Part shown: positions 2,682 to 26,627 of the stretch, in pieces
Position numbering within the stretch: the first letter of the stretch is position 1
Layout of the letters: each line of letters opens with the position of its first letter
Assembly: GCA_028281205.1 (NCBI GenBank)
Contig: JANQKJ010000272.1
Coordinates: 1-33,584 of the forward strand
Origin: Gammaproteobacteria bacterium
GTDB taxonomy: Bacteria > Pseudomonadota > Gammaproteobacteria > UBA4575
Reading direction: 5' to 3'
Length of the DNA stretch: 33,584 nt
Translations under genes and position numbers: made by a program
The notes under the pieces: model-generated
What the model was told of the DNA's origin: nothing
The model's database searches: none
The model's input: the letters and a program-made list of their open reading frames with translations, nothing else

Positions 2682-2717
2682 ACAGTCGTATAGCTACAAA
2701 AATATGGAGAATTCTAA

Positions 2718-3080: not shown

Positions 3081-3100
3081 ATATATTGGAGAGTATTTAA

Positions 3101-5323: not shown

Positions 5324-5359
5324 TATATGAGATTAAAGTAATTTTAAGGAGTAAATAAC

Positions 5360-5881: not shown

Positions 5882-5931
5882 AATATTAATAATTAGAAAA
5901 TGGTAGCGCAACTAAATGGCTGGGAGTAAAA

Positions 5932-6177
5932 ATGTACGAATTTAAATTACCACAATCAGTAACCATATCAAGTTGTGATGAGTTGCTAAGCAAAGCGATT
6001 CAAGCCAAAGCAAATGATATGAAAATAGAATTGGATTCTAGTGAAGTTAATATTATAGATACTGCCGGCATTCAATTTATTTGTTCATTTTGTGCAGATG
6101 TTAACCAAGTAACTCACGTTAATATGTCTGAAGTCGTAAAAGATGCAATGAGTCAGCTTGGGTTATCTGCAACATGA
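5932..6177 (+). CDS. Small STAS-domain protein resembling an anti-sigma-factor antagonist
   Basis: 81 aa. GGGAG SD. The core pattern LDSSEVNIIDTAGIQFICSF resembles the STAS/SpoIIAA fold. It is embedded in the che operon, and its stop overlaps the next start (ATGA). Confidence 0.55.
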   Translation: MYEFKLPQSVTISSCDELLSKAIQAKANDMKIELDSSEVNIIDTAGIQFICSFCADVNQVTHVNMSEVVKDAMSQLGLSAT

Positions 6178-6644
6178 CTGAGTCATCAAATTTATCGCAT
6201 ACAAGAAATTACATTCGTCTATTTCAAATGCAATTACATGGTGTGCTAGAGGATATGGCAACACCAGCTGAAGTGTTGTCTAGTCAATTCTCAGAGTCAT
6301 TATTAAAGCTATATGACATACGTGAACATGTCGCAGATGATAATCAAATCAATCGTCAAGAGCTTTTAGATAAAGTACAAACACTTATTAGTGAAATGTT
6401 TGAGTGTGTCTCAAGTATGCAGTTTGTAGATGCTAAAAGACAAAGAATAGAACATGTAGCTGATGGTTTAAGTTATTTGATTGAAACAGATGATGCCAAT
6501 AATACTATGAAATATAGTTGGGATCAGATAAATACTATGATAGTAGAGCAGTTTAAAATGGATAAAGAACGTAATATTTATCAAAAATATCTGCAAGAAT
6601 ATAGTTCTTCCGACTCTGCTAATTACCAAAGTGAGGCAAATTAA
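6174..6644 (+). CDS. Hypothetical helical protein, possibly a short CheZ-like CheY-P phosphatase
   Basis: 156 aa, translationally coupled to the STAS gene. Contains MQFVDAKRQRIEHV with D86-x3-Q90 (nt 6429-6443), which resembles the CheZ active-site D-x3-Q motif (QDFQDLTGQ in E. coli CheZ). No other family was recognised. Confidence 0.4.
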   Translation: MTESSNLSHTRNYIRLFQMQLHGVLEDMATPAEVLSSQFSESLLKLYDIREHVADDNQINRQELLDKVQTLISEMFECVSSMQFVDAKRQRIEHVADGLSYLIETDDANNTMKYSWDQINTMIVEQFKMDKERNIYQKYLQEYSSSDSANYQSEAN

Positions 6645-6646
6645 TT

Positions 6647-7273
6647 ATGAGTCTCACTGCTGCTCAGTCACAAACAGCAATCCGTGGCTTTGAGCATTAT
6701 AAAAAATTCTTTGATAACTCTCTTAAGGCTAATGTTGTAAAGATATCGCCTGGAGATTATTACATCACAGATCAACAAGAAATAATTACCACTGTTTTGG
6801 GTTCGTGTATTTCTGCTTGTGTCAGAGATAAGCGTATGAAGATCGGTGGTATGAATCATTTTATGATTCCGGTTAAGTGTCCACATACTTCACATCCAGA
6901 GCAAGATATGGATACCCGTTATGGAACATATGCTATGGAACACTTAATTAATGATATCTATAAACATGGGGGTAGTCGTAGAAATCTTGAAATTAAACTA
7001 TTCGGTGCAGGTAATGTATTAGTTGGCAGCGGTGATGTAGGAGTAAAAAATATTAAATTTATTTATGACTTTATGCGTGTAGAAGGCTACAAGATTACCT
7101 CGGAGGACTTGGGTGGGGACTTCCCAAGAAAAATTAATTATTGTCCTATGACGGGTAAGGTCATGATGAAAAGATTAGTATCTGCCAATATTGCTGATAT
7201 CCAATTGCAAGAACGCAAATTGCAAAATCAAGTTGAGTCAACACCTGTGGCAGGTGAAATTGATCTATTTTAA
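6647..7273 (+). CDS. cheD: Chemoreceptor glutamine deamidase CheD
   Basis: 208 aa. Contains the CheD catalytic-Cys context TTVLGSCISACV and MNHFMIP. Lies between the che genes. Confidence 0.85.
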   Translation: MSLTAAQSQTAIRGFEHYKKFFDNSLKANVVKISPGDYYITDQQEIITTVLGSCISACVRDKRMKIGGMNHFMIPVKCPHTSHPEQDMDTRYGTYAMEHLINDIYKHGGSRRNLEIKLFGAGNVLVGSGDVGVKNIKFIYDFMRVEGYKITSEDLGGDFPRKINYCPMTGKVMMKRLVSANIADIQLQERKLQNQVESTPVAGEIDLF

Positions 7274-7294
7274 CTTATATTAAGAAGAATAAAA

Positions 7295-8413
7295 ATGGAT
7301 AAAATTAAAGTACTGGTTGTTGATGATTCAGCATTAATAAGGTGTCTGTTATCAGATATGCTTAATGCAGATCCGCATATTGAAGTTATAGATACTGCAA
7401 ATGATCCTATTGAAGCGCGTAGTAAAATAAAGTTACATAATCCTGATGTAATTACTTTAGATATTGAAATGCCAAAAATGGATGGCATTACATTTCTTGA
7501 TAAATTAATGCGTTTGCATCCAATGCCTGTAGTGATGATTTCTTCGCATACACAAAAAGGTGCGGAATGTGTAATGCGCTGTTTACAAATAGGTGCAGTA
7601 GACTTTATGCCTAAGCCTGTAAGTAATCATGATGATTCGCTAAGTATTTATGCCTCAAACCTTATTAATAAAGTCAAGGCTGCAAGTCATGCAGATGTTA
7701 CAAAGCATTTACAAATAAGTGATAAAAATTCTCACCAAGTAATGGCTGATGGCATGCCGGCTTGTGAAATTAAAGCACCAGAGCTGTTAAATGCAAATAC
7801 TAATATTCGCTTAGTTGCAATTGGCTCGTCAACAGGAGGTACTGAAGCGCTTGCCCAGCTAATACAACATATACCTGTTGATTTTCCGCCTATTGTTATT
7901 ACTCAGCATATCCCTTCAAAATTTAGTAAAGCTTTTGCGGAAAGGCTAGATCGTCATTGCGCGGTAAGCGTTATTGAGGCTCAGGATGGAGATGAGATAA
8001 AAGCAGGACATGTTTATATTGCGCCAGGTGGAAAGCAAATGGAAGTGGTTAAATATAAATATAATCTAATGTGTAAAGTTTTTGAGGGTGAGAAAGTCAA
8101 CAGACACCGCCCTTCCGTGGAAGTGTTGTTTAAGTCAGTTGCCAAAGTTGTTGGTAAGAAAGTGATTAGCGTTATGCTCACTGGTATGGGCGATGACGGT
8201 TCCGCATCAATGAAGACTATAAAAGATATGGGCGGTATTACCATCGCTCAAGATGAGCAATCTAGTGTGGTGTGGGGGATGCCAGGTGCTGCTGTTAAGT
8301 TAGGATGTATAGATAAAGTTGTTTCTTTGGATAAGATTCCTGAACTACTCGTTAAGTTATGTCGTGAAAATTCAACTAATTCACTTTCAAATTTACGTTC
8401 AGCATCACAATAA
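7295..8413 (+). CDS. cheB: Chemotaxis response regulator / protein-glutamate methylesterase CheB
   Basis: N-terminal REC domain (VLVVDDSALIR, TLDIEMPKMDG). C-terminal esterase domain (VAIGSSTGGTEAL, MLTGMGDDG, WGMPGAA). Confidence 0.95.
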   Translation: MDKIKVLVVDDSALIRCLLSDMLNADPHIEVIDTANDPIEARSKIKLHNPDVITLDIEMPKMDGITFLDKLMRLHPMPVVMISSHTQKGAECVMRCLQIGAVDFMPKPVSNHDDSLSIYASNLINKVKAASHADVTKHLQISDKNSHQVMADGMPACEIKAPELLNANTNIRLVAIGSSTGGTEALAQLIQHIPVDFPPIVITQHIPSKFSKAFAERLDRHCAVSVIEAQDGDEIKAGHVYIAPGGKQMEVVKYKYNLMCKVFEGEKVNRHRPSVEVLFKSVAKVVGKKVISVMLTGMGDDGSASMKTIKDMGGITIAQDEQSSVVWGMPGAAVKLGCIDKVVSLDKIPELLVKLCRENSTNSLSNLRSASQ

Positions 8414-8425
8414 AACTTTACTGCT

Positions 8426-9259
8426 ATGAGAAAAAATTACGTGCTGACAGATTCAGAATATAAAGATATATGCTCGTTAGTATATCAAAACACTGGTATC
8501 ATTCTTAATGAGGAAAAGCGTAAGCTTGCTTATTCGCGATTTTCAAGACGACTAAAAGCATTAAAATTAAACAGTTTTGGTGAATATTGCGATATTGTGC
8601 GTGCTGGCGATAAAAATGAAATGACTCATTTTGCAAATGCCATCACCACTAATCTAACTTCATTTTTTAGAGAGTCGCATCACTTTGATCGCTTGGTCGA
8701 TGATGTTATGCCAGCGTTACTAAAAAAGCCTTCACGTAAAATTCGTATTTGGTCTGCTGGGTGTTCCACAGGTGAAGAGCCTTATTCCATTGCCATTGCA
8801 ATATTGAAAAAATTTCCCAATATTGCTGCTGGATGGGATTGCAAGATTTTAGCGACAGATCTTGACTCTAAAGTACTTGAGACTGCATCACAAGGTTTAT
8901 ATAAGGCGCAAGGATTAGATACTCTGGATGATCCAGAGATCAGTATAAACTGGTTTAAGAAAGGTATTATTGATGGCGTTGAATATGCACAAGTCTTGCC
9001 GCAAGTAAGAGAGTTAATTAAATTCAAGCAACTCAACTTGATGAATTATCCCTGGCCTATGCAAGGGACTTTTGATGTTATCTTCTGTAGGAATGTAGTC
9101 ATCTATTTTGATCAGGTAACACAAAAAAAATTATTTTCACATTTCTCCAAAGTGCAAAACATTGGTGGTTATCTCTTCATTGGACACTCAGAAACACTTA
9201 AGGGTTTTGATACTGACTATAAAAATACTGGGCGTACTGTCTATATAAAAGAACGCTGA
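8426..9259 (+). CDS. cheR: Chemotaxis protein methyltransferase CheR
   Basis: 277 aa. Motifs TNLTSFFRE, IWSAGCSTGEEPYSIA, FDVIFCRNVVIYFD and LFIGHSE. Confidence 0.95.
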   Translation: MRKNYVLTDSEYKDICSLVYQNTGIILNEEKRKLAYSRFSRRLKALKLNSFGEYCDIVRAGDKNEMTHFANAITTNLTSFFRESHHFDRLVDDVMPALLKKPSRKIRIWSAGCSTGEEPYSIAIAILKKFPNIAAGWDCKILATDLDSKVLETASQGLYKAQGLDTLDDPEISINWFKKGIIDGVEYAQVLPQVRELIKFKQLNLMNYPWPMQGTFDVIFCRNVVIYFDQVTQKKLFSHFSKVQNIGGYLFIGHSETLKGFDTDYKNTGRTVYIKER

Positions 9260-9356: not shown

Positions 9357-10061
9357 ATGCTTAGAATACTTACCGCAGCAGTAGTAATATTTTTCTCAAG
9401 TGCTGCAATTGCCTCTAACCTTGCAGAGGACTTGGATAGATTCGTCAAAGAATACATTAATACAGCACCACAAGATGTACAAACAGACTTTAATCGAGGT
9501 ATCGAAGAAGTCAGCCTGTCAGGAATTCTGGATAAAGCCATTAATGTTGGCGACTATGCACCCGAGTTTAAATTGATTAACGCGGTAGGGAAAGAAGTCT
9601 CTTTATATGATGAGTTAGAAAAAGGGCCAGTGGTACTGGTCTGGTATCGTGGTGGTTGGTGCCCATATTGCAACTTACAGTTGCAACATATCCAACGTAA
9701 ACTTGCAGAAATTGCTGAAGCGGGAGGGCAAGTTATTGCAATCTCGCCTGAATTGCCGGATAAAACAATGACTACTAAAGAGCGTCATATGCTGCAGTTT
9801 CAGGTATTGAGTGATGTTAATAATCATGTTGCAGATAGATATAGATTAGCTTATACCGTACCTGATTATGTTGTTGATCATTATGACTTATCTTCTAAGC
9901 TAAATGCTCATAATGGAGATGATGAAAATAGGCTGCCTCTAGCAGTCACTTATGTCGTCGGTAAAAATGGTGTTGTTGAATATGCATTTTTGGATGCAGA
10001 TTATAAAAATAGAGCTACTCCGGAAGAGATAATTTCTGTATTGCGATATATAAATAAGTAA
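9357..10061 (+). CDS. Exported AhpC/TSA (peroxiredoxin-like) thioredoxin-fold protein
   Basis: Sec-type signal peptide (MLRILTAAVVIFFSSAAIASN). Thioredoxin-fold motif WYRGGWCPYCNLQL. Confidence 0.8.
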   Translation: MLRILTAAVVIFFSSAAIASNLAEDLDRFVKEYINTAPQDVQTDFNRGIEEVSLSGILDKAINVGDYAPEFKLINAVGKEVSLYDELEKGPVVLVWYRGGWCPYCNLQLQHIQRKLAEIAEAGGQVIAISPELPDKTMTTKERHMLQFQVLSDVNNHVADRYRLAYTVPDYVVDHYDLSSKLNAHNGDDENRLPLAVTYVVGKNGVVEYAFLDADYKNRATPEEIISVLRYINK

Positions 10062-10102: not shown

Positions 10103-10510
10103 TCAGTAGTCCGACCCCTCAATCATCACGCCAGCAAGTGTTGTGTAGGTTACTGCCCAAGCATCTTTCACTTCTGGAGTGAAATCATCTTTAAGGCCTT
10201 GTTCTAATGTCCATAGTAATGATGCACCTACTTTATCGTAATCTTCTGCTTTAACTCCATAATCAACATGCTTTTTACCTAATGCCTTGACTGGTTCAAT
10301 TAATGCTTCAATATTATCTAAGCCAGCAACTGCGGTATTGATCATCATCATTAGTTTTTTGCCTTGTTCTTTCATGTCTCCTTTGAAGTACGTTTTTACT
10401 TCTGGGTATTGTTCAAATAATCGATTGTAAAAGAGATCTGCTGCGGTCTCTTTAATTGGCATTACTTTTGCCCAAGATTGTTGAACGAGTTCTTTCTGCT
10501 CTGGGGTCAT
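10103..10510 (-). CDS. Single-domain 3/3 globin of the Vgb/Cgb/Hmp-globin type
   Basis: 135 aa with no signal peptide. LFYNRLFEQYPEVKTYF aligns by eye with Vitreoscilla Hb TFYKNLFAKHPEVRPLF (Tyr B10). KEQGKKL gives Gln E7. LGKKHVDYGV gives the proximal His F8. Its start codon directly abuts the stop of the upstream cytochrome c5 gene. Confidence 0.85.
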   Translation of the reverse strand: MTPEQKELVQQSWAKVMPIKETAADLFYNRLFEQYPEVKTYFKGDMKEQGKKLMMMINTAVAGLDNIEALIEPVKALGKKHVDYGVKAEDYDKVGASLLWTLEQGLKDDFTPEVKDAWAVTYTTLAGVMIEGSDY

Positions 10511-10891
10511 TTAATTGTCCTCTTTATTTATATAATATTCTGCAAGTGCTTTCATATAATCCACAGCTAGTTTTACTTCATTATCACTAAGGCTATCGTT
10601 ACCTCCTCTAGGAGGCATCATTGTATCTTCAGGCCCAAAGAAACCATTTATGGCGTGATCATATAAAATATCAATAGGTTTCACTACTCTGTCTTGCCAA
10701 TCTTTTGCTTTTAATGGGTTAGGAGATTCGGCGATGCCATAAGCATGACAGCCTTCACAGCTATCTATCCATATGACTCTTCCTTGGACTAAATTAGCTT
10801 GCTCAAAATGAACATACGTATCCTCTTCAGACAATGCTTGTGTACTGCCGAAGAGGATACATATGAAAATTAGTGTTGACTTAGTAATCAT
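10511..10891 (-). CDS. Periplasmic monoheme cytochrome c, c5 family
   Basis: Signal peptide present, single CEGCH motif, c5-like tail (MMPPRGGNDSLSDNEVKLAVDYM). Lies 3 nt after the preceding gene. Confidence 0.85.
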   Translation of the reverse strand: MITKSTLIFICILFGSTQALSEEDTYVHFEQANLVQGRVIWIDSCEGCHAYGIAESPNPLKAKDWQDRVVKPIDILYDHAINGFFGPEDTMMPPRGGNDSLSDNEVKLAVDYMKALAEYYINKEDN

Positions 10892-10894
10892 TAA

Positions 10895-11503
10895 CTAACC
10901 ACTAATAGGAATACGTATTACTACTCCTCCCATCACGTCACCCATTTTAAAGTCACGTTTAGGTGTGTCTTTATGGTCGTTATGACAACTTACACATACG
11001 GGCGCAACAGCAGTATCAGCATACACTGCAGTAAAATATTCAGTACCGCCAAGTTCTTCAGTTGCGTAGTAGTTTTGGCCTTTGTTTTCGGCAACAAATT
11101 TTAATCCTTCTTTCTCTACATCCGTTTTAGGAGCGTTTTGTTTATTGATTGGCCAAAGTGACTGTAATGAGTAACTAAAATTAACATCGGGTTTTTCTTC
11201 AGCACGTTTAGCTACCATTTCAGCGCCAAATCTAAACATCTGTGCAGGTAATACTAAGGCTTTGTCATCTTCGAAATGCTCACTTGCCTTAATGACTTTT
11301 TCTTTTTTAACCAAGCGATTAACAATTCTTTTTGTGTATACTGCACGATCTGAATCCATTACCAAATGTAATGCATCTGCCATCGCTTTTGGGGTAATTG
11401 ATGGGGTGGTGCCTGCATCTTTGGCGATAGCGATACCAGCACCAATGCTTAGACATGTGGCTATTGTGACAATAGCCAGGTTCATTTTTTTCTCTTCTTT
11501 CAT
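10895..11503 (-). CDS. Periplasmic DUF3365 / Tll0287-like c-type heme protein
   Basis: Signal peptide (MNLAIVTIATCLSIGAGIAIA; the true start may be the second Met at 11485). Single CVSCH near the C-terminus, followed by GDVMGGVVIRIP, as I recall for the family. AGGAG SD before 11503. Confidence 0.7.
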   Translation of the reverse strand: MKEEKKMNLAIVTIATCLSIGAGIAIAKDAGTTPSITPKAMADALHLVMDSDRAVYTKRIVNRLVKKEKVIKASEHFEDDKALVLPAQMFRFGAEMVAKRAEEKPDVNFSYSLQSLWPINKQNAPKTDVEKEGLKFVAENKGQNYYATEELGGTEYFTAVYADTAVAPVCVSCHNDHKDTPKRDFKMGDVMGGVVIRIPISG

Positions 11504-11581
11504 TGCTGTATGACTCCTATATTATGGTTGATACTAAAGTTAGTAGCTTGAGTGAAAATCAATACACAAATGCTACAAAGT

Positions 11582-12991
11582 TTATTCGGCATCCTGTTTC
11601 TCTTGTAAATATCTTTCTAAATCTTTTCTTGCTAAATCAATGCTTTCTACTTTGACTTTACTTAAACCATTAAAATTATTTTTAATTAAATCTTCATCTG
11701 CTAACGAATCAATAGCAAAACCAAGCCCATGACAATGTAAGCATGAAGATCGGATCATTTTGCTATTTGGAGACAAATTTGCGCTTTGGTTATGGTCGAC
11801 TAATTTTCTAGTAGTCCATTCGCTCACGTCATAGTCGATGCGGGGCATATGACAACTTGCACATGAGACACCTTGGTTTTCATGCTTGTTATCATTACTT
11901 GTTTGCTCTTGTATCCAGAGAGCATAATGTTTTGAATCTTTATAAGCTAATGAATGATCGTCGGCGTGACATTGAAGACAGCCATCTACAGCTGCATAAC
12001 TGACATCATAGTTATGTGCGCCATGACAACTATTGCAAGTCAGTTCTTTATGTGATGCATCACTATGCATAGGTAATAATGCTTGTGCTGGTGTCATAGC
12101 TGATAATCCAGCTTGTAAGCGCATGCCATGTTTACCTAATTTAAATCGATTCACTTCATGGTTATGGCATTGATTGCAACTATCCATGTTAGGAGAATCA
12201 TTCCAAACAGCTACTTGAGTTTTTTCAGTAATACTAATATGACACGCAGAACAGTTTACTCCTGATGCAGCATGAGCAGTGGTACTCCAGTCGTGGATGA
12301 TAGCTTCATCGTAATGTTTATCTTTTGGTGCATCTATTTCTTCTATGCTGAGTGCTTGTACTGGATATTTATCGCGAGGGTATTCAAGGATTTCATCCAA
12401 AACATCGAAAAACTCTTTCGCAGGAAGCGTTGCATTATTTTTATGGAAGGGGTCATCCATATGTTTAACAAGAAAATCTGTATATAGTGCGCGGTTGTTA
12501 TGGAAGTTATGACATCCGGAATCTTTGCACGTCATAAATGACATTCCTTCATGTGAAGGTCTTTCCTGGGCAATTTCTGCATGACAATGAAAACAGACAT
12601 CTCTTGGTTGAGTCAGGCCATCTTTTAAAGTTATTTCTGGTTTATGCTCAACGTGACAGCTAACGCAGTGAGTAGCATTAATTTTTTCTAAAGTATCTGC
12701 GTTACGAGGGTCCTTGAATTTCGACCTTGGGTGTGAGTCATTAGGCTTAACTCGGTCATCACCATGACAACTAATACAGGCATCTTGTAATATTTCGTCA
12801 CCACCAAAAGCACTGGTATGACATGTATCGCAAGCATCAACCAACTGGTGATGGCCTGGACTCAAGTCTCCAGGCATAAATAACGTTTTAGTTACTCCCT
12901 CAGACATTAGAAGGTAAGTAAAAAATAACGCAATGGCTACACTGGCTATCAGCCACGATACCCAGAACTGGAGATTGTTTTTTTTGTTCAT
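11582..12991 (-). CDS. Membrane-anchored multiheme cytochrome c with about 11 heme sites
   Basis: N-terminal signal anchor (FWVSWLIASVAIALFFTYLLM). Ten CXXCH motifs: CDTCH, CISCH, CVSCH, CFHCH, CSACH, CNQCH, CNSCH, CLQCH, CASCH and CLHCH. One CX4CH motif (CKDSGCH). No CXXCK motif. Confidence 0.9.
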   Translation of the reverse strand: MNKKNNLQFWVSWLIASVAIALFFTYLLMSEGVTKTLFMPGDLSPGHHQLVDACDTCHTSAFGGDEILQDACISCHGDDRVKPNDSHPRSKFKDPRNADTLEKINATHCVSCHVEHKPEITLKDGLTQPRDVCFHCHAEIAQERPSHEGMSFMTCKDSGCHNFHNNRALYTDFLVKHMDDPFHKNNATLPAKEFFDVLDEILEYPRDKYPVQALSIEEIDAPKDKHYDEAIIHDWSTTAHAASGVNCSACHISITEKTQVAVWNDSPNMDSCNQCHNHEVNRFKLGKHGMRLQAGLSAMTPAQALLPMHSDASHKELTCNSCHGAHNYDVSYAAVDGCLQCHADDHSLAYKDSKHYALWIQEQTSNDNKHENQGVSCASCHMPRIDYDVSEWTTRKLVDHNQSANLSPNSKMIRSSCLHCHGLGFAIDSLADEDLIKNNFNGLSKVKVESIDLARKDLERYLQEKQDAE

Positions 12992-13000: not shown

Positions 13001-15010
13001 CTAATACCAGTAACCTTTTAAAATATGCCAAGCTAGTAATACTGGGATTGGCCAAAATAAAAGAATATGTATATACACAGATAAATGACGTGCGCGGGTT
13101 GCTATAGCATTACTTAATTTATGTTCTAAGCTGATTACACCAGATGAAATAGCACCGGCGATCAACATCATTGAAAAGCCAAGCATAAGAACAAAATTAA
13201 GGCCATTACCTAGCCGGAATCCGGTATGTGCAACTAATGTGACAACAACTAATACTCCCAGGCATATATGAGCTAAACGCCAGTAATCAAACTTACCTAA
13301 TTTGTCTAGCTTTCTTATTCGTTTGCGTAAAGATATTAATAATCCAATACTGAATAGTCCTAAGACGGAAAAACCCGATATCTGTTTAAATAAATCATTT
13401 CGCCAAAGTACGTCCCAATGCCAGCCGTTCTGTACTGTCGTTGCGTAAGGTAAATTTGGCGCAATATAAAAAAGTAATGACAAAATTAATGTCACTATAG
13501 AAAAACTTGTTAATGTTCTATACATTGAGGCCGGTTCTTTGTTTATGTTTGAGCCTATTAGCTCTTGAACTAAGGGCTTGCATGAACCACATACAGTGCT
13601 TGCGCCTGTTGAATCAGAAACCATTTGCACGCTATTTGCGCCTTGGTGGATACAATCGCTAATACTTCCGCGTGTGACGCTCATACATTGACAAACAACA
13701 GCTCTTGCCGGCCAGGCACTTACAGTATTACCAATATCTTCTGGCCAAATATTTCCAGTGCGTAAAAATCTTATAACTTGCCATGGATAAAATTTCGCAG
13801 CATTTCCAATAGTTGTTTGTAATCGTACTGTTTCATCCCATTGACCGATACCAATAGCTCCAACTAGGCGGTAGCGATGTACTAGAATCTTGCGGTATAT
13901 ACCTTTGCTTTCATCTTTATAAACATAATGCTTGCCATAATGTTGAATTTCGCTGTTACCCATTGGCCCCATACTAAATACTTGAGTATCGATTACCTTT
14001 AATCGAGAAGCAGCAACAGAACCTGAATATAAATGTTTGATATTTGCAATATTGGCAGCAGCGACACTCGCTTGCTCTAAACCAGGTGCAACTAAGCCAT
14101 AGATTTCATTGCGGTGTTCTGCACATTCTCCAACTGCATATATGTCTGCTTGCGAGGTTTGCATTGAATCATTGACAGTAATGCCTCTGTTATAAGCCAG
14201 CTTAGACCGTTTTGCTAATTCAATATTTGGTCTAATTCCAGTAGATAAAATGATTGTGTCACAATCAATATGTTTTCCTGAACGTAACGATAATCCCGTT
14301 ACACGCTCATCATTATCACCAAATATCTCGGTGACGCTATCTTGCGTAATTAATTCAATACCTAAAGATGTAATTTCTTTTTCTAGTATATTGGCTGCAT
14401 CGATATCAAGTTGATTGCTTAACAGACGATCCGCATGTTCTATCAGCGTGACTTTTGTATTTTGTTTTTGCATCGCACGTGCTGATTCAATACCAAGTAA
14501 TCCTCCGCCGAGGACCACAGTATGATGAGAGCGTGCACGTCTTGCGATTAAACTATTGGCATCTTTAAAGTTGCGAAATGTATATACGCCATGTTGATGA
14601 ATGCCAGGAATATTGGGTTCAAAAGGATAAGATCCTGTTGCTAATATTAATTTTGAATAAGGCTGTTTTCTGTCTGAATTGTCATAAATACATTTTTTAT
14701 CAATATCGATATTAGTCACTTTGAAACCAAAGCGCTGTTCTATATTACAATCAGATGGTATGTCTAATGGTTGTAATAATGATTCCCAATCGACATCACC
14801 TGCTAACCATGAAGATAGTTTAATGCGGTTATAGGGTTCTTGTTGTTCATCTCCATAGATAATGATGGAAGTATTAGGTGACTTTTTAATAATTTCTTTA
14901 GCAGTACGCATGCCAACCGGACCATTACCAATTATCACTAATGGTAATTCTCTTATCATAGAAACATTAGCTGAATTAGATTCCATGACTATGTGGCTGG
15001 TTGCTGACAT
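13001..15010 (-). CDS. Fusion protein: NirB-N-terminal-like FAD/NAD(P)H oxidoreductase, BFD-like [2Fe-2S] domain and a 5-TM bis-histidine (putative di-heme b) membrane domain
   Basis: Two Rossmann motifs (VIIGNGPVGMR, VVLGGGLLGIESA). Strong similarity to the first ~400 aa of the bona fide NirB at 19231 (for example AVGECAEHRNEIYGLVAP versus AVGECVQHRNVCYGLVAP). BFD pattern CQC...CGSC. Five predicted TM helices follow. TM3 is AHICLGVLVVVTLVAH (H581-x13-H595) and TM5 is HILLFWPIPVLLAWH (H648-x13-H662). No siroheme/4Fe-4S nitrite-reductase domain is present. Confidence 0.8.
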   Translation of the reverse strand: MSATSHIVMESNSANVSMIRELPLVIIGNGPVGMRTAKEIIKKSPNTSIIIYGDEQQEPYNRIKLSSWLAGDVDWESLLQPLDIPSDCNIEQRFGFKVTNIDIDKKCIYDNSDRKQPYSKLILATGSYPFEPNIPGIHQHGVYTFRNFKDANSLIARRARSHHTVVLGGGLLGIESARAMQKQNTKVTLIEHADRLLSNQLDIDAANILEKEITSLGIELITQDSVTEIFGDNDERVTGLSLRSGKHIDCDTIILSTGIRPNIELAKRSKLAYNRGITVNDSMQTSQADIYAVGECAEHRNEIYGLVAPGLEQASVAAANIANIKHLYSGSVAASRLKVIDTQVFSMGPMGNSEIQHYGKHYVYKDESKGIYRKILVHRYRLVGAIGIGQWDETVRLQTTIGNAAKFYPWQVIRFLRTGNIWPEDIGNTVSAWPARAVVCQCMSVTRGSISDCIHQGANSVQMVSDSTGASTVCGSCKPLVQELIGSNINKEPASMYRTLTSFSIVTLILSLLFYIAPNLPYATTVQNGWHWDVLWRNDLFKQISGFSVLGLFSIGLLISLRKRIRKLDKLGKFDYWRLAHICLGVLVVVTLVAHTGFRLGNGLNFVLMLGFSMMLIAGAISSGVISLEHKLSNAIATRARHLSVYIHILLFWPIPVLLAWHILKGYWY

Positions 15011-15042: not shown

Positions 15043-16377
15043 CTAAAAGTTAATACCACCCCAAAGCCAGAAGACTTTTTTATCTTCGCGGAAGTCATCG
15101 TCGCCATTGAAGTCTGCGTATTTAGCACCTAATGAGTAATGCTTGCCGAATTTCTTCACAGCAAGTAGATTAAGCTCATCACCATAATCATCAATTAACT
15201 GATCATCTTCTGGCTCGTATTCGTGGTAAACTGCAAGTAATTTGACACCATAGAACTTAGTTCCAACTGAAACGTAGGTGTCTTCGATTCCAGCAGTTCC
15301 TGCTGCACCATAAACACCTGATATTCCGGAGCCTAAGAACACATCAGCCCAACCTTGGAAAGCATGTAAAGTAGCAAAAGGTGTGATAAAACTTTCACCA
15401 TCGTCAACATCGCCTTCAAGCGTTTCCATGCCTACTTTAACTGTGATTGGTGCAAGGTTTGCAGCACCCGTTTTAAAACTCACGCCACCTTCAAGTAATG
15501 TGTAGTTTAAAGAACTGAAGTCATCTGCTTCTTTGTAATCATCTTGAGATGCATATTCGCCTGTGCCTAGCAATGTGATAGATTCAGACACAGGGAATTT
15601 ACCTTTTAAACGAATACCCGCGGTTTTGCGCGAATCATCTTCGCCAAATAACAGATTAACTTCTTCATCCCCTTCCCAGAGATAGTAGTAGCCTGTTGCA
15701 TCCAAGTACTTTAAGCCTGAATAGTTGATGTTAAAGTTGTTATTAGTGACATTGAAATCGCCTGCTGTGCCTGCTTGATCACCAAAAATGCGATTAACAT
15801 TTGTCTGGTGTGAATACATACCTCGTAAGCCATACTTTTTAGACTCTACTGTCACAAGAGTTGCGTCATAGGTTTGCTCGTTTTGTCTCCAACCAACATT
15901 GCCTATAAATCTATCGTTATCCCATTTTTGACGTTGCCGGCCATAGCGAATTAAAAAACTAGTATCTTCATAAGCATTACTAAATTGGATATATGCTTGG
16001 TTTAGTTCAGTTTCTTCAGGATCAGCAACAGTGTCGTATTCCAGATCTTCTTCGTCTAATGGGCCGGGGCCGTCATTATATTTTTTACTGCCTACTTCAC
16101 GAATGTCCTCCATTTCTGCAAATATCGAGAAACCATGAAAGTCTCCTGTTTGATAACCTAGGCGAGTGCGAATTGTTGATGCTTTAGCCTTATCACGATT
16201 TTCGCCCATTACAAGCGCGTCATCATCAACACCTTCGTAACGATAACGTACATTAGCTTTCAACTTTCCCCCAGTTAATGCTTTAGTAAATTCATCTACT
16301 TGACCGTCAGCAAATGTATAACTAGATTGCATGCCAAGTAGTAAGCAACTTGATAACGCAATGTTTAATAACTTCAT
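15043..16377 (-). CDS. Outer-membrane beta-barrel porin (family not assigned)
   Basis: Signal peptide ends in FA-DG. The sequence shows an alternating amphipathic pattern rich in Tyr, Gly and Asp. C-terminal WGGINF ends in Phe. GGGAGA SD. First gene of the minus-strand operon. Confidence 0.75.
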   Translation of the reverse strand: MKLLNIALSSCLLLGMQSSYTFADGQVDEFTKALTGGKLKANVRYRYEGVDDDALVMGENRDKAKASTIRTRLGYQTGDFHGFSIFAEMEDIREVGSKKYNDGPGPLDEEDLEYDTVADPEETELNQAYIQFSNAYEDTSFLIRYGRQRQKWDNDRFIGNVGWRQNEQTYDATLVTVESKKYGLRGMYSHQTNVNRIFGDQAGTAGDFNVTNNNFNINYSGLKYLDATGYYYLWEGDEEVNLLFGEDDSRKTAGIRLKGKFPVSESITLLGTGEYASQDDYKEADDFSSLNYTLLEGGVSFKTGAANLAPITVKVGMETLEGDVDDGESFITPFATLHAFQGWADVFLGSGISGVYGAAGTAGIEDTYVSVGTKFYGVKLLAVYHEYEPEDDQLIDDYGDELNLLAVKKFGKHYSLGAKYADFNGDDDFREDKKVFWLWGGINF

Positions 16378-16439
16378 GACTATTTATCTCCCTAGGTTTT
16401 TAAATAAGGTTGCCGATTAAAAATTTTTTTACGCGCATA

Positions 16440-16475
16440 AAAAAAGCCACAGCCAAATATTTCATTAGCTGTGAC
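16440..16475 (-). terminator. Leader intrinsic terminator (attenuator) upstream of the porin gene
   Basis: The minus strand reads GUCACAGC, a 14-nt loop, GCUGUGGC and then U6. The stem is 8 bp with one G-U pair. It lies between a sigma-54 promoter and the porin start codon, not at the end of any gene. Confidence 0.6.
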
Positions 16476-16509
16476 TTCTTCGTCTATTAGCTGAGCGTCT
16501 TTGATCAGC
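16473..16509 (-). promoter_or_regulatory. Candidate ANTAR (NasT) dual-hairpin binding element in the porin-operon leader
   Basis: On the minus strand, P1 is GCUGAuC-AAAGAC-GcUCAGC, with a hexaloop having A1 and G4. P2 is aGAC-GAAGAA-GUCa, and its 3' arm is the start of the terminator's 5' arm. Confidence 0.5.
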
Positions 16510-16839: not shown

Positions 16840-17442
16840 TTGGAGAACTGTGGCTTGAATAAATATTTATCTGTAATGTTAGTCGACAATGACCCTGTTA
16901 GGTCTGCAATTGTTGAAGAATATTTATTAGATAATGGATATCAAGTTGTTCAAAGGCTTGATTCAACAACTGACTTAGCTACTCAAATTGAGCAGATTAA
17001 GCCTGATGTGATTGTTGTTGATATTGATTCACCTGATAGAGACACTTTAGAGGATGTGCATTTAGCATCCAAAGATGAGCCGCGTCCAATAGTTTTGTTC
17101 ACGGATGATAGTAATAAGAACACGATGGATAAAGCTATTAAAGCTGGGATTAGTGCATATGTTGTAGATGGTTTAAGTAAATCCAGGATTAAGCCTGTTA
17201 TTGAAGTTGCAATCGCTAGATTCGAAGAATACCAAGCTTTAAGAAATGAATTAGATGAAGCTAAATCCAAGCTTGCAGATAGAAAAGATATTGATATCGC
17301 AAAAGGCTTACTTCAAAAGCAACACCATATGACTGAAGAAAGTGCTTATCAAGCATTAAGGAAAATTGCTATGGATCAAAAAATCACTATTGGGGCTGCA
17401 GCGCGTAATTTAATATCCATTAGTAAAATTATCAATTCATGA
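16840..17442 (+). CDS. nasT: NasT-type response regulator with an ANTAR RNA-binding antiterminator domain
   Basis: REC domain (MLVDNDPVR, VIVVDIDSPDRD) followed by an ANTAR domain (RKDIDIAKGLLQKQHHMTEESAYQALRKIAMDQKITIGAAARNLI). The start is ambiguous: TTG 16840, TTG 16855 (GGAG 9 nt upstream) or ATG 16876. Confidence 0.85.
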   Translation: MENCGLNKYLSVMLVDNDPVRSAIVEEYLLDNGYQVVQRLDSTTDLATQIEQIKPDVIVVDIDSPDRDTLEDVHLASKDEPRPIVLFTDDSNKNTMDKAIKAGISAYVVDGLSKSRIKPVIEVAIARFEEYQALRNELDEAKSKLADRKDIDIAKGLLQKQHHMTEESAYQALRKIAMDQKITIGAAARNLISISKIINS

Positions 17443-19230: not shown

Positions 19231-21663
19231 ATGAAGAAAAAATTAGTATTAATAGGCAATGGTATGGCAGGTATAAGGACTGTCGAAGAACTGCTTAAAA
19301 TTGATGATTCACTCTATGATATTACTGTTTTTGGTTCTGAACCTTATGGTAACTACAATCGTATTATGCTTTCTCCTTTACTGGCAAGCGAGAAAACGAT
19401 TGATGAGATCATGCTTAATGATAAGGAATGGTATGCGCAAAACGATATAACTTTACGTGCTGGTGTTACTGTTGAAAATATTGATCGTATCAACAAACAA
19501 GTCAACGCAGGTAACGTAAAAGAATCATATGATCGTTTAATCATTGCCACAGGTTCTAATCCATTTATGTTGCCAGTCCCAGGTGCTGACTTAGAGGGTG
19601 TTATCGGGTTTCGGGATATCGCTGACGTAGAAAATATGTTGACGACTGCAAAAAATTATAAAAATGCAGTCATTATCGGTGGTGGTTTATTAGGCTTGGA
19701 AGCTGCAAATGGACTTATGAAACAAGGTATGCATGTTTCTGTCGTGCATCTAAGTGGTTCACTAATGAATCGTCAGCTGGATAAAGCATCTTCGTTGCTG
19801 TTGAAAACTTCATTAGAAGAGCGTGGCATGAAGTTTTACATGCAAGCAGATACCGAATGCATTTTAGGTGATGGTCATGTGCAGGAAGTTAAATTTAAAG
19901 ATGGTACTCGTATCCCTGCAGACTTGGTTGTAATGGCTGCAGGTATAAAACCCAATATTGCTCTGGCTCAACAAGCAAATATTTACTGCGATCGTGGCAT
20001 TGTTGTAACTGATACCATGCAAACCTACGATCCAAATATTTATGCAGTCGGTGAATGTGTTCAGCACCGTAATGTATGTTACGGCTTAGTAGCACCATTA
20101 TTTGATCAAGCTAAAGTATGTGCCAATCACCTTGCTCAAATTGGAACCAAACAATATGAAGGTTCAGTAATTTCTACAAAGTTAAAAGTCACTGGAATTG
20201 ATTTGTTTTCGGCTGGGCAATTTGATGAGAAAGAAGGTGACGAAACACTTATTCTGCAAGATCCATCACAAGGCGTCTATAAGAAACTAGTTATTCGTGA
20301 TAATGCGATTAAAGGTGCTGTTCTTTATGGAGACACGCTAGATGGAAGCTGGTATTTCCAATTAATGCGGGAAAAAACCGATGTTTCGGGCTTTAGAAAT
20401 AATCTTCTGTTTGGGCAGCATGATTTAGGTGACGCAGGTCATGGAGAAGAGAGTCGTGTCATAGCCATGGGAGACGATGCGGAAATATGCGGTTGTAACG
20501 GTGTATGTAAAGGCGAAATTGTTTCTGCGATTGGTGAGAAGAAGTTATTCACACTTGATGATGTTCGCTCGCATACCAAAGCCTCTTCTTCTTGTGGTTC
20601 ATGTACTGCCTTGGTTGAAGCACTGCTTGCATCGACAGTGGGTGAGGGTTATGACGCAGCACCCAGTGTGAAACCAATATGCGGGTGTACTGAATATAGT
20701 CATGACCAAATCATTGCGGCGATTAAAGAACAACAATTAAAAGATATGCGCTCCGTATTTGAATATTTGAATTGGAAAACCGACGATGGTTGTCATATAT
20801 GTCGCCCGGCAGTTAATTATTATTTGCTTGCGCGATGGCCAGGTGAATATGTAGATGATAGTCAATCACGTTTCATTAATGAGCGTGCGCATGGAAATAT
20901 ACAAAAAGATGGAACTTATTCTGTAGTGCCACGAATGTTTGGCGGTTTATGCACACCAAATGATTTGCGTGCAATTGCTGATGCATGTGACAAGTATGAC
21001 GTTCCGGAAATGAAAGTCACTGGCGGCCAGCGTATCGACATGTTCGGCGTTAAAAAAGAGGATCTTCCGTCAATGTGGAGAGATCTTTCTGAGGCGGGTT
21101 TTGTTTCTGGCCATGCCTATGGCAAAGCATTACGCACTGTTAAAACATGCGCAGGTAAAACATGGTGCCGCTTTGGAACACAGGACTCTACTGATCTTGG
21201 CGTCAAATTAGAACAACTCACATGGGGTTCTTGGATGCCACATAAATTTAAGATGGCTGTTTCTGGTTGTCCCAGAAATTGTGCTGAAGCAACTATCAAA
21301 GACTTTGGTGTCGTCTGTGTTGATTCTGGTTATGAGTTACATGTCGGGGGTAATGGCGGAATTAAAGTCAGAGTGACTGACTTTCTCGTCAAAGTAGATA
21401 CAGAAGAAGAAGTGCTCGAATACAGTGCTGCATTTGCCCAACTTTATCGTGAAGAAGCGCATTATTTAGAGCGTACTGCGCCTTGGGTTGAACGTGTTGG
21501 CCTAGCTTACATTAAACAGCAAATCTTAGAAGATGAACAAAATCGCAAAGCGTTATATGAGCGTTTTAAATATTCGCAGCAATTTGCACAGATTGACCCA
21601 TGGAAACAACGTGCTGAAGGCAAGCAACGTCATGAGTTCACGCCATTAGAATTAGTAGGATAA
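19231..21663 (+). CDS. nirB: Assimilatory NAD(P)H nitrite reductase, large subunit
   Basis: 810 aa. Contains FAD/NAD Rossmann motifs, a BFD [2Fe-2S] domain (CGCNGVCKGEI...CGSC) and a sulfite/nitrite-reductase siroheme-4Fe-4S region (TCAGKTWCRFG, SGCPRNCAEA). Confidence 0.95.
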   Translation: MKKKLVLIGNGMAGIRTVEELLKIDDSLYDITVFGSEPYGNYNRIMLSPLLASEKTIDEIMLNDKEWYAQNDITLRAGVTVENIDRINKQVNAGNVKESYDRLIIATGSNPFMLPVPGADLEGVIGFRDIADVENMLTTAKNYKNAVIIGGGLLGLEAANGLMKQGMHVSVVHLSGSLMNRQLDKASSLLLKTSLEERGMKFYMQADTECILGDGHVQEVKFKDGTRIPADLVVMAAGIKPNIALAQQANIYCDRGIVVTDTMQTYDPNIYAVGECVQHRNVCYGLVAPLFDQAKVCANHLAQIGTKQYEGSVISTKLKVTGIDLFSAGQFDEKEGDETLILQDPSQGVYKKLVIRDNAIKGAVLYGDTLDGSWYFQLMREKTDVSGFRNNLLFGQHDLGDAGHGEESRVIAMGDDAEICGCNGVCKGEIVSAIGEKKLFTLDDVRSHTKASSSCGSCTALVEALLASTVGEGYDAAPSVKPICGCTEYSHDQIIAAIKEQQLKDMRSVFEYLNWKTDDGCHICRPAVNYYLLARWPGEYVDDSQSRFINERAHGNIQKDGTYSVVPRMFGGLCTPNDLRAIADACDKYDVPEMKVTGGQRIDMFGVKKEDLPSMWRDLSEAGFVSGHAYGKALRTVKTCAGKTWCRFGTQDSTDLGVKLEQLTWGSWMPHKFKMAVSGCPRNCAEATIKDFGVVCVDSGYELHVGGNGGIKVRVTDFLVKVDTEEEVLEYSAAFAQLYREEAHYLERTAPWVERVGLAYIKQQILEDEQNRKALYERFKYSQQFAQIDPWKQRAEGKQRHEFTPLELVG

Positions 21664-22019: not shown

Positions 22020-24206
22020 ATGTTATTTGGAAGGAAGAATAAGAATCCAATTAAAATTGCAGACAAAGGTGTGGTCGAATGGAAATATGCAACCTGTGGC
22101 TACTGTTCAACGGGTTGTTCGATTGAAGTCGGTATTGATAAAAAAGGTGAAGCAGTTGCTTCCAGGGGAGTTGCTGATGCTGATGTTAACCGTGGCAAGC
22201 TATGTATTAAAGGTATATATGAGCATGAATTGTTTCGTAAAACCAGGGGTCGTGGAAATAAACCATTAATACGTGAAAATAGATGGGACGAATTTCAAGA
22301 AACAAACTGGGATACAGCATTAAGTAAAACTGCTGATGAAATAAAACGTATCCAACAGCAGTATGGCCGCGATGCTTTTTCGATTGTATCCACTGGTCAG
22401 ATAATGACGGAAGAATTTTACACTTTGGGTAAACTTGCCCGAGGCGTGATTGGTACTAATAATTACGATGGCAACACTACACTGTGTATGTCGTCAGCAG
22501 TTTCCGGTTATAAACGCTCATTTGGTTCAGATGGCCCACCTGGATGTTACGAAGACTTTGAACATACCGAATGTTTATTGGCGTTTGGATCTAATTTGCC
22601 CGAACAGCATCCAATTATCTATTGGCGCTTAATGGATGTACGTGAAAAACACAACTTTCCATTAATTGTTATTGATCCCCGTGTGACTATGTTTGCTCAG
22701 CAAGCAGACATGCATTTGGCTATAAATCCTGGAACCGACTTGGTGCTATTAAATGCTTTGGCACATGTTATTTTAGCTGAAAAACTCCATAAGCCAGAAT
22801 ATATTGAAGCATATACTCAAGGCTACCAAGAATTTGCTGAACTTGTTGCGCAATATGACCCTGTAACAGCTTCAAAAATCTGTGGCATTGATGAAGATAC
22901 TATTCGTAATGTCGCACGAGTATTTGCCAAGGCAGGAGCGGCCATGTCTATTTGGACTATGGGTATTAACCAAAGTACTCACGGTTCCGATGGTGTCGCG
23001 GCAATTAATAATTTGCATTTAATTACCGGCAATTTAGGTAAACCAGGCGCAGCTTCTTTATCAATTACCGGTCAGTGTAACGCAATGGGTACACGTGAGT
23101 GGTCATCATGTTCTGGTTTGCCGGGATATCGTTCGTTAGAGAATGAACAAGACCGAAAAGAAATATCTGAGTTTTGGGGAGTAGATCCAGAATTCTTCCC
23201 TAAAGAACGCGGCATGTTCATGACAGATATTTTACCCGCCATCGAAACTGGAGAGGTTAAAGGCCTATGGCTAATTGCCACCAACCCAATGACCTCGATG
23301 GCAAATACTGCACGTATCCGTAAGACATTAGAGAAACTTGAATTTCTCGTTGTACAAGATGCTTATCAGGACGTTGAAACTAATCAATATAGTCACGTTT
23401 TTTTGCCTGCTGCTATTTGGGCGGAAAAAGAAGGGTGTTTCACAAACACCGAAAGGCGTGTGAATATTATTCGCAATGTCTGTGAACCCTATGGAGAATC
23501 AAAAACTGATTTATGGATATTTAATCAAATGGCTAAACAATTTGAGCGCGGCCAAAATGTAATATTTCCTGAATCAGCAGAAGGTGTGTTCGAAGAGCTA
23601 AAAACATTATCTAAGGGGCGTATGTTAGATTACTCAGGTATGTCATACGAAAAAATTGAACAGTCGCGTGGCATCCAATGGCCGTGTAATGAAGAACAAT
23701 CACCTCAAGGCACGCAACGATTATACACAGATGGTGTTTTCCAAACTGCTTCCGGCAAAGCAAACTTATTAGCACTACCTTTTATTGATAATAACGAACG
23801 TCCCGATAAGGATTATCCATTTTGGTTGAATACGGGGCGGGTAGTTGAGCATTTTCATACGCGCACCCGAACTGGCAAAGTCGCGAATGGAAATAAATTC
23901 AGTCCAACACCATATATGGAAATGAATCCCGATGCTGCAGCAGAATTAAATATTCAACATGGTACTTATGCACGTTTAAGTTCGCGTCGTGGTGATGCCA
24001 TCGTTATGGTGCAGTTAACTCAACGTGTAGCAAAAGATACGGTATTTGTTCCATTTCATTTCCATGAGTGTGTGAACCGACTTGCATTAGGCTTACTAGA
24101 CCCGCATTCACGCCAACCTGCATATAAACAAAGTGCAGTACATATAGAGAGAATAGAGAACCAGCAGGACGCAGCACAAAAGAACGCTATGGCTAGGAGT
24201 TATTAA
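22020..24206 (+). CDS. nasA: Assimilatory nitrate reductase catalytic subunit (molybdopterin, NarB/NasA type), cytoplasmic
   Basis: N-terminal 4Fe-4S motif CGYCSTGCS...C. MopB-family core. The 728-aa length lacks the C-terminal 2Fe-2S extension. No twin-arginine signal is present. Confidence 0.9.
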   Translation: MLFGRKNKNPIKIADKGVVEWKYATCGYCSTGCSIEVGIDKKGEAVASRGVADADVNRGKLCIKGIYEHELFRKTRGRGNKPLIRENRWDEFQETNWDTALSKTADEIKRIQQQYGRDAFSIVSTGQIMTEEFYTLGKLARGVIGTNNYDGNTTLCMSSAVSGYKRSFGSDGPPGCYEDFEHTECLLAFGSNLPEQHPIIYWRLMDVREKHNFPLIVIDPRVTMFAQQADMHLAINPGTDLVLLNALAHVILAEKLHKPEYIEAYTQGYQEFAELVAQYDPVTASKICGIDEDTIRNVARVFAKAGAAMSIWTMGINQSTHGSDGVAAINNLHLITGNLGKPGAASLSITGQCNAMGTREWSSCSGLPGYRSLENEQDRKEISEFWGVDPEFFPKERGMFMTDILPAIETGEVKGLWLIATNPMTSMANTARIRKTLEKLEFLVVQDAYQDVETNQYSHVFLPAAIWAEKEGCFTNTERRVNIIRNVCEPYGESKTDLWIFNQMAKQFERGQNVIFPESAEGVFEELKTLSKGRMLDYSGMSYEKIEQSRGIQWPCNEEQSPQGTQRLYTDGVFQTASGKANLLALPFIDNNERPDKDYPFWLNTGRVVEHFHTRTRTGKVANGNKFSPTPYMEMNPDAAAELNIQHGTYARLSSRRGDAIVMVQLTQRVAKDTVFVPFHFHECVNRLALGLLDPHSRQPAYKQSAVHIERIENQQDAAQKNAMARSY

Positions 24207-26492: not shown

Positions 26493-26574
26493 ATATAGAG
26501 GCATAATACTAGGTGAGAAAATGCTCTGTTAAATAATACTCAGTTAAAACAGTATGTTACATAAGTATGATACT

Positions 26575-26590: not shown

Positions 26591-26627
26591 GAGTGTAAAG
26601 TAAGTTTAGAATTTTTAATTAATTGCA

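Follow-up and report, generated by a model that had tools for sequence, protein, structure and literature searches.

Examination of positions 1 to 33,584 of contig JANQKJ010000272.1 (hereafter the window; GenBank assembly GCA_028281205.1), from a gammaproteobacterium of the lineage UBA4575, revealed a gene coding for a 669-amino acid protein (13001..15010, minus strand) in which a NirB-type NAD(P)H/FAD reductase and a BFD-type [2Fe-2S] domain are joined, in a single open reading frame (ORF), to a membrane domain of five transmembrane (TM) helices with four conserved histidines. In our view, this fusion protein is probably a flavo-iron-sulfur cytochrome b of the membrane, made of a single polypeptide, that takes electrons from NAD(P)H (probably NADH) in the cytoplasm and delivers them to the periplasm. 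A preliminary description, made from the letters of the DNA, had proposed a one-polypeptide transmembrane NAD(P)H dehydrogenase with outward delivery. Two observations now support it, the b haems themselves being predicted: a multihaem cytochrome c is encoded by the next gene in 79 of the 80 loci fetched for synteny, and the reductase module has been naturally swapped in some relatives. The outward electron-transfer reading is thus well supported by the operon context.

The reductase half of the protein is assigned by several matches. Residues 24-318 (14057..14941, minus strand) form a two-dinucleotide-binding FAD/NAD(P)H domain with GNGPVG and GGGLLG motifs (Pyr_redox_2, E 1.7e-57), together with a Pyr_redox match at residues 163-243. 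A Rubredoxin_C-type C-terminal domain occupies residues 335-402 (13805..14008, minus strand; PF18267, E 6.3e-14), and a BFD-like [2Fe-2S] domain with the ligands C440, C442, C474 and C477 occupies residues 438-485 (13556..13699, minus strand; PF04324, E 5.3e-12). The AlphaFold2 model of the full protein reached a pLDDT of 87.7 and a pTM of 0.73, and its best Foldseek matches were BphA4, putidaredoxin reductase and rubredoxin reductase (E about 1e-31) in a result dominated by ferredoxin and rubredoxin reductases. The NCBIfam NorW model matched the reductase at 2.3e-48, and a sequence profile matched bacterioferritin-associated ferredoxin structures of the PDB in the BFD part. Judged from the sequence alone, a glutamate after the second Rossmann strand (E191) suggests NADH as the donor.

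The resemblance to NirB noted in the preliminary description over the first 480 or so residues, including both Rossmann motifs, the GECAEHRN block and the BFD cluster, was borne out by BLASTP: residues 24-491 align, with 33% identity and an E of 5e-71, to residues 5-472 of the true NirB encoded at 19231-21663 in the window, and the alignment takes in VGECAEHRN against VGECVQHRN and the CxC...CxxC cluster motif. The two proteins share homologous N-terminal FAD/NAD domains, Rubredoxin_C domain and BFD cluster. The NCBIfam model TIGR02374 (NirB) is matched end to end by the window NirB, in which PF03460 and PF01077 (NIR_SIR) are both present, whereas the fusion protein covers only positions 1-475 of its 794 and scores 399 bits against a cutoff of 578. 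Three parts of NirB are missing, namely a second BFD, the ferredoxin-like half-domain of NIR_SIR and the domain for sirohaem/[4Fe-4S], neither PF03460 nor PF01077 being found by Pfam in the fusion protein, and five TM helices stand in their place, as had been claimed. Identification as NirB is ruled out by the missing catalytic half and the sub-cutoff score, and since the sirohaem/[4Fe-4S] half is absent, nitrite reduction in the NirB manner is impossible for this protein.

The membrane domain spans residues 495-669 (13004..13528, minus strand). Hydropathy and the AlphaFold2 model place its helices at residues 497-516, 539-564, 574-596, 603-627 and 634-668, and a model of the TM domain by itself had a pLDDT of 83.6. 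The two histidine pairs 14 positions apart that the preliminary description reported in TM3 and TM5 are exactly at residues 581/595 and 648/662, an H-x13-H motif twice over. H581 (codon 13268..13270) lies in the cytoplasmic half of TM3, on the conserved face (offset -13 degrees), and H648 (13067..13069) in the cytoplasmic half of TM5; the two are the proposed ligands of an inner haem b. H595 (13226..13228), within an HTGxR motif at the periplasmic end of TM3, and H662 (13025..13027), at the periplasmic end of TM5, would hold an outer haem b. All four codons are on the minus strand, and H581 and H595 both fall on the conserved face of TM3. The loops rich in basic residues, RKRIRKLDK and EHKLSNAIATRAR, are located where they had been placed before, and Lys/Arg residues number 4 in loop 2-3 and 3 in loop 4-5 against 1 in loop 1-2 and 1 in loop 3-4. 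By the positive-inside rule, these counts put the flavin domain in the cytoplasm, again as first proposed, so that TM3 and TM5 cross the membrane in the outward direction and the C-terminus lies in the periplasm.

Conservation was measured on an alignment of 120 full-length homologues with 49-81% identity. H595, H648 and H662 are kept in all 120 and H581 in 119, and the BFD cysteines C440, C442, C474 and C477 are invariant. Further invariant residues are W577-R578, G597, K563-R564 and P654/P656, while in the HTGxR motif T596 is kept in 119 and R599 in 118 sequences; 119 also keep a fifth histidine, H630, situated in cytoplasmic loop 4-5. Per-helix conservation is poor for TM1 (0.52) and higher for the core formed by TM2-TM5 (0.67-0.79). 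Judged by this alignment, the conservation of the four histidines in the membrane domain is not a matter of chance.

The family is large. The profile of the membrane domain, run against 1.84 billion representative proteins, yielded no fewer than 415 clusters (50% identity) at E<1e-30; almost every complete member has a length of 640-690 amino acids, with the membrane domain C-terminal. When one genome of each species was scanned, 161 reference species proved to have relatives; these are mostly Gammaproteobacteria (Halochromatium, Sedimenticola, Hahella, Halieaceae, Corallincola, Neptuniibacter, Thiogranum), with others among Beta- and Alphaproteobacteria, Planctomycetota and Verrucomicrobiota. 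Public databases give the members no other names than 'FAD-dependent oxidoreductase' and 'nitrite reductase (NADH) large subunit'. At the 90% level, the proteins of the window are cluster singletons. The preliminary description knew of no enzyme with this arrangement, and our check of full-text literature and preprints, whose coverage leaves out most subscription journals, likewise found no description of the fusion or of its operon. As a minor point, one metagenome-assembled genome (MAG) carries fusion and multihaem genes that are each broken into several ORFs (locus L061, 6555-10405), probably because of long-read frameshift errors or decay; the 160-amino acid 'stand-alone' TM protein of that locus (P0014) was consequently rejected as a separate architecture, being a fragment of a frameshifted copy.

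The natural exchange of the reductase is seen in two relatives. In P0041 (locus L087, 704-3559), a pair of EF-hands, a BFD domain, FAD_binding_6 and NAD_binding_1 precede the same five-helix domain with all four histidines, and in P0132 (locus L085, 6881-9922) three cyclic nucleotide (cNMP)-binding domains are followed by BFD, an FNR-type module and the membrane domain, again with all four histidines. Both genes are on bacterial contigs, and in both cases the same multihaem cytochrome gene comes after them; downstream of P0041 there is also a gene for a Tll0287-like haem protein, described below. In the FNR-type variants, too, the reductase lies ahead of the TM domain. A few more proteins of the BFD, FNR-type and TM kind exist. 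An unchanging membrane domain with unchanging cytochromes, combined with an NAD(P)H-flavin module that is replaced, is what is expected of a dehydrogenase-to-periplasm relay. The regulatory domains suggest that some bacteria may possess Ca2+- or cyclic-nucleotide-gated electron export resembling that of NOX5. P0041 is labelled 'nitric-oxide synthase' by JGI. A further candidate, P0292 (cNMP-binding domain, BFD and FNR), was set aside as probably not a member of the TM family: it has no Pfam NAD_binding_1 match, only 62% of the BFD-FNR-TM query was aligned, and the gene after it is for a P450.

In the scheme that we propose, FAD in the NirB/NorW/ferredoxin-reductase-type domain would be reduced by NAD(P)H and would in turn reduce the BFD [2Fe-2S] cluster. 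The cluster would pass electrons to the inner haem b held by H581 and H648, from there they would reach the outer haem b held by H595 and H662, and the outer haem would deliver them to the product of the next gene, the 11-haem cytochrome c anchored in the membrane. The latter would then reduce the Tll0287-like haem-c protein, a small cytochrome c, or both. The domains, topology, invariant ligand residues, operon partnership and reductase swap are observed features; the existence of two b haems, the direction taken by the electrons and the contacts between partners are inferred. The need for such a relay follows from the operon itself, since c-type haem is attached only outside the cytoplasm and periplasmic partners of this kind need electrons carried across the membrane.

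The design recalls that of the NADPH oxidases and ferric reductases (NOX5, the bacterial SpNOX and CsNOX5, Fre/FRO), which likewise combine a cytoplasmic NAD(P)H-flavin dehydrogenase and a membrane domain in one polypeptide; the NOX superfamily also has histidine pairs 12-13 residues apart on helices 3 and 5 and an N-terminus inside. With pairs of histidines on two inside-to-outside helices, a stack of two haems could reach across the membrane and carry electrons out. The rare P0041 type shares with NOX5 even the EF-hands and the FNR-type reductase. In contrast, the usual fusion protein has a reductase of the two-dinucleotide-binding NirB/ferredoxin-reductase type, placed N-terminally, where that of NOX is of the FNR type and C-terminal; it has an extra [2Fe-2S] cluster between the flavin and the proposed haem, and five helices instead of six; and its proposed acceptor is a dedicated periplasmic cytochrome chain, as opposed to O2 or Fe(III).

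The preliminary description went further and called the membrane domain ferric-reductase/NOX-type. The histidine spacing, the placement on helices 3 and 5 and the topology agree with this, while homology does not, and several results weigh against it and against a haem-binding domain in general. No Pfam family was matched at threshold by residues 490-669. PF01794 (Ferric_reduct) was matched below cutoff by 1 of 18 members (E 0.21) and by 1 of 30 in a second set (E 5.7e-4). Foldseek with the TM-only model gave no significant neighbour (best E 0.44), the top matches, talin rod and designed bundles, being dismissed as meaningless, and the comparison with the NOX5 TM domain (5o0t) gave an E of 2.6 and a TM-score of 0.23, values to be read knowing that Foldseek is weak on helical bundles. 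Alignment by hhalign with E. coli MsrQ and YodB, single-sequence templates of low sensitivity, yielded nothing (probability 0.1-0.2%), and in a sequence-profile search of the PDB with the TM domain only the BFD part was matched. DUF4405 (PF14358) was matched by 8 of 18 and 8 of 30 members at 15.6-22.8 bits, below the cutoff of 26.7; the match was always in the same register, TM2-TM3 against profile positions 8-64, ending at HTG. Matches to Cation_ATPase_C were as strong (9 of 30, best E 1.6e-6, against 8 of 30 for DUF4405); as evidence for a transporter they were rejected, being at the level of hydrophobic-composition noise, and DUF6713 was also among the loose sub-threshold matches. The families named for profile comparison beforehand, ferric reductases, MsrQ/YedZ, cytochrome b561 and DUF4405, thus gave a weak, constant-register signal for the last and nothing significant for the others. 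As a label, 'ferric-reductase/NOX-type' is apt by analogy, for the design and the topology, with homology unsupported; given the insensitivity of Foldseek and single-template hhalign to helical bundles, a very distant homology is conceivable.

The absence of any proven haem-binding family above threshold also lends itself to another explanation, in which the five helices hold no haem at all and are a mere anchor, or a His-lined metal site, tethering a soluble-type reductase that would serve the globin or the nitrate reductase, much as Flp-type reductases serve cytoplasmic partners. A plain anchor would not keep four histidines, the WR pair, HTGxR and two prolines invariant across phyla, and the obligatory periplasmic haem-c partners and the reductase swap would be left unaccounted for; we consider this explanation highly improbable.

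A further comparison is with the DUF4405, MsrQ-like and PepSY-like cytochromes b, small helical membrane domains with which the fusion protein has four central conserved histidines in common (PMC11334425). They are thought to pass electrons across the cytoplasmic membrane, and haem b binding was shown for a purified DUF4405 member (PMC11334425). Those proteins have six helices, stand alone and have flavinylated (ApbE) partners, whereas the fusion protein has five helices and its own fused NAD(P)H reductase.

By description, the fusion protein and its partner also resemble Tmc, Hmc, DsrMKJOP and the dihaem succinate:quinone reductases, in that cytoplasmic flavin and/or Fe-S groups are combined with membrane b haems (proposed in the present case); the periplasmic multihaem c is a further likeness to Tmc and Hmc, again by description and not by homology comparison. 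Those systems consist of several subunits, with no NAD(P)H dehydrogenase fused to them, and their electrons run mostly inward or to and from quinones. A quinone-linked reading of the operon has to be weighed. Quinone binding is found in the dihaem b subunits of many respiratory enzymes, and the membrane domain could form a quinone site like those of NarI, FdnI or SdhC, which would make the fusion protein an NADH:quinone oxidoreductase; the multihaem cytochrome would then be fed by quinol through its own TM helix, in the way of NrfH, NapC or CymA, and the two proteins would share only the quinone pool. The N-terminal TM helix of the cytochrome with its conserved Trp residues would suit this arrangement, as would the DmsC-type quinol module in the nas cluster of the window. 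Against it, the multihaem protein has no NapC/NirT-family Pfam match at E<=0.01, no quinone-site motif was identified, and the fusion and cytochrome genes remain adjacent in nearly all loci, even after the exchange of the reductase, which points to a dedicated pair. We regard quinone linkage as unlikely.

The multihaem cytochrome c (11582..12991, minus strand) is a protein of 469 amino acids with an N-terminal TM anchor, conserved W10/W13 and ten CxxCH motifs. Amid these, the CX4CH motif CKDSGCH at residues 155-161 (C155-H161) is invariant and is probably an eleventh haem site with an unusual attachment motif. The 12 conserved non-motif histidines, for 11 haem motifs, leave no open catalytic haem evident, and the protein has the look of a wire of 11 haems, all of them bis-His, and not of an open-haem enzyme. 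Among solved proteins it matched only two haem-pair modules of NrfA and octahaem ONR (E 2e-9), in another order. A nitrite reductase of the NrfA/ONR kind was rejected on these grounds: there is no CxxCK, the histidines suffice for bis-His ligation throughout, and the modules are out of order.

Weak matches of the same protein to MtrC/MtrF domains, and to the DmsE decahaem family (TIGR03508, 32 bits against a cutoff of 192), raise the question of extracellular or metal reduction. The operon of the window is headed by a gene for an Alginate_exp-like outer-membrane beta-barrel (15043..16377, minus strand; PF13372, E 4.5e-18), and barrel and cytochrome could form a porin-cytochrome conduit, driven by NADH, to Fe(III), Mn(IV) or another acceptor, or could serve reductive iron uptake. 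The barrel gene is present in only 10 of the 80 loci, often with nasS/nrtA instead, and is an accessory part rather than a member of the operon core; the DmsE score is far below its cutoff, and the globin and the nas linkage would be left unexplained. A conduit of the MtrAB/DmsEF type was rejected for the rarity of the linkage, the Alginate_exp-like character of the barrel and the TIGR03508 score, and metal reduction as a whole appears quite improbable.

Three smaller genes follow the multihaem gene in the window. The first (10895..11503, minus strand; PF11845, E 7.6e-20) encodes a 202-amino acid Tll0287-like (DUF3365/sCache_haem) periplasmic protein with one CxxCH and a Sec signal peptide, and is present in 69 of the 80 loci. 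Tll0287-like/DUF3365 domains are Cache-fold domains with covalently bound c haem, and a stand-alone member acted as a redox protein with Cys/His ligation (PMC12889525). The second (10511..10891, minus strand) is an ORF for a small class-I cytochrome c of 126 amino acids with a signal peptide and the motifs CEGCH and MPPRGG. Among the 66 loci with enough downstream room, a homologue was found in at least 30, and Cytochrom_C/CBB3 Pfam matches were obtained in loci L081, L082 and L088. The third ORF (10103..10510, minus strand) encodes a single-domain globin of 135 amino acids that has no signal peptide and carries TyrB10 (Y28), GlnE7 (Q49) and HisF8 (H81); its PDB relatives include 3wfw (E 4.5e-30), neuroglobin, Vitreoscilla haemoglobin and flavohaemoglobins. 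A globin lies downstream of the fusion gene in 53 of the 66 loci. In locus L088, on a contig as large as a complete genome, a truncated (2/2) haemoglobin (Bac_globin; 11433-11786) occupies the slot held elsewhere by the 3/3 globin, and this non-orthologous replacement argues that globin function as such is required. The five-gene set was also found in Thiosocius teredinicola and in a Burkholderiaceae MAG, in otherwise unrelated surroundings.

As oxidisers of sulfur or iron are numerous among the hosts (Thiosocius, Sedimenticola, Halochromatium, Thiogranum, Gallionellaceae), and as His/Cys-ligated haems like that of Tll0287 occur in sulfur enzymes, the chain could in principle run the other way, the periplasmic cytochromes oxidising a sulfur compound, hydroxylamine or Fe(II) and passing electrons inward to NAD(P)+ or the globin. 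Such electrons would move from the positive to the negative side, against the membrane potential, and transfer from cytochrome c to NAD+ is strongly uphill; moreover, ordinary heterotrophs such as Hahella, Halieaceae and Luteolibacter also carry the family. Inward flow is in our view very improbable. Outward flow runs with the membrane potential and stores no energy, which fits a protective or assimilatory role and not a respiratory one.

The genomic surroundings point to nitrate assimilation. In the window, nasT and the operon are oriented divergently, and the operon adjoins nasS-nirBD-nasA-nrtABC. Within 8 kb, NasT, NasS/NrtA-like or NirB genes were found near the fusion operon in 24 of the 53 loci with full flanks, and NasT itself in 20 of the 53, so that the link is strong but not universal. 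The divergent neighbour (16840..17442, plus strand; Response_reg and ANTAR) is a NasT-type ANTAR response regulator and a candidate regulator of the operon. The 5' leader of the operon contains a terminator-like hairpin with a U-tract (16439..16480, minus strand; found from sequence and fold, leader z-score -3.4), and, of 71 loci, 38 have sense-strand hairpins of this type upstream of their fusion gene, compared with 5 of 71 coding controls. The hairpin is a possible control point for antitermination by NasT/ANTAR.

A precedent is an operon of Bradyrhizobium japonicum, narK-bjgb-flp-nasC, which is controlled by NasT and in which a single-domain haemoglobin and a flavoprotein protect against nitric oxide (NO) derived from assimilation (PMC4724949). 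Here, as with Bjgb and Flp, a single-domain haemoglobin is encoded alongside a flavoprotein that uses NAD(P)H, with a link to NasS-NasT and the assimilation of nitrate (PMC4724949), and the globin of the window has what appears to be an NO-dioxygenase-type pocket (Y28, Q49, H81). The difference is that Flp is described as a cytoplasmic flavoprotein and that the Bjgb-Flp operon has neither a membrane cytochrome b domain nor periplasmic cytochromes (PMC4724949).

Our findings lead us to suggest, tentatively, that the terminal chemistry of the system is the removal of NO or another reactive N-oxide arising from nitrate or nitrite assimilation. The cytoplasmic globin would act as an NO dioxygenase, perhaps kept reduced by the same flavoprotein, a parallel to Bjgb-Flp, and the haem-c chain would remove N-oxides on the periplasmic side. 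This role is favoured by the nas linkage, the leader terminator, the globin pocket, the NorW-class reductase and the Bjgb-Flp precedent. Several points tell against it: the multihaem cytochrome offers no evident catalytic haem, roughly half of the loci lack nas genes in their vicinity, an Rfam scan of 10-27 kb found no known leader at the operon, and the two operon leaders of the window shared no sequence on alignment. The N-oxide function is the weakest part of our account because no open catalytic haem was identified. Taken as a whole, the picture would be that of an independently assembled counterpart of the NADPH oxidases, in which a NirB-type flavoprotein, a BFD domain and a five-helix dihaem domain un- or very distantly related to the ferric-reductase domain feed their own periplasmic chain, N-oxides are removed on both sides of the membrane with the help of the globin, and sub-lineages with FNR-type reductases are gated by EF-hand or cNMP-binding domains. 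We offer this composite as a rather doubtful, if conceivable, proposal.

To our knowledge, the export of NAD(P)H electrons by a flavocytochrome b has been described so far essentially for proteins of the NOX/ferric-reductase type. If our reading of the fusion protein is true, the same exporter design was built a second time from different parts, namely a two-dinucleotide-binding flavoprotein, an Fe-S relay and another helix bundle, and with a reductase open to replacement. Members of the family are common among Proteobacteria of marine, sediment and freshwater habitats, sulfur oxidisers and relatives of symbionts among them, and the present labelling as 'nitrite reductase large subunit' or 'FAD-dependent oxidoreductase' can distort nitrogen-cycle gene counts based on nirB. 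Should the operon handle NO or related species, it would be an unrecognised sink in nitrate-assimilating bacteria, and it would define a redox partner for stand-alone Tll0287-like haem proteins as well as for many single-domain bacterial globins, whose redox partner has, as far as we know, long been missing.

Other features of the window deserve mention. Just upstream of nrtA, a weak Rfam P11 match (26563-26711, plus strand; 24.8 bits, cutoff 70, E 0.06) lies near a strong terminator hairpin, GGTGTCAACGTG...CACGTTGACACC then T9, ahead of which is a small hairpin with an AACGAA hexaloop; this leader looks like one of the NasT/ANTAR type. Between nirBD and nrtABC (22020-26041, plus strand), a NasA-like molybdoenzyme of 728 amino acids, cytoplasmic as it has no twin-arginine signal, is followed with a stop/start overlap by a 611-amino acid fusion of a DmsB/NrfC-type four-cluster ferredoxin (Fer4_11) and a DmsC-type membrane anchor. 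An assimilatory nitrate reductase wired in this way to a membrane module, perhaps a quinol one, would be unusual. A gene at 9357-10061 (plus strand), which converges on the globin gene, encodes a peroxiredoxin (AhpC/TSA) that seems to have a signal peptide; AhpC/TSA genes are also near the module in loci L082 and L071, which may be a coincidence or may reflect a shared context of oxidative or nitrosative stress. Finally, a complete and ordinary-looking chemotaxis cluster (27-9259, plus strand) encodes an 884-amino acid methyl-accepting chemotaxis protein with HAMP_2, CheA, CheW, CheD, CheB and CheR, and includes, at 6174-6644, an ORF of 156 amino acids that has no Pfam match.

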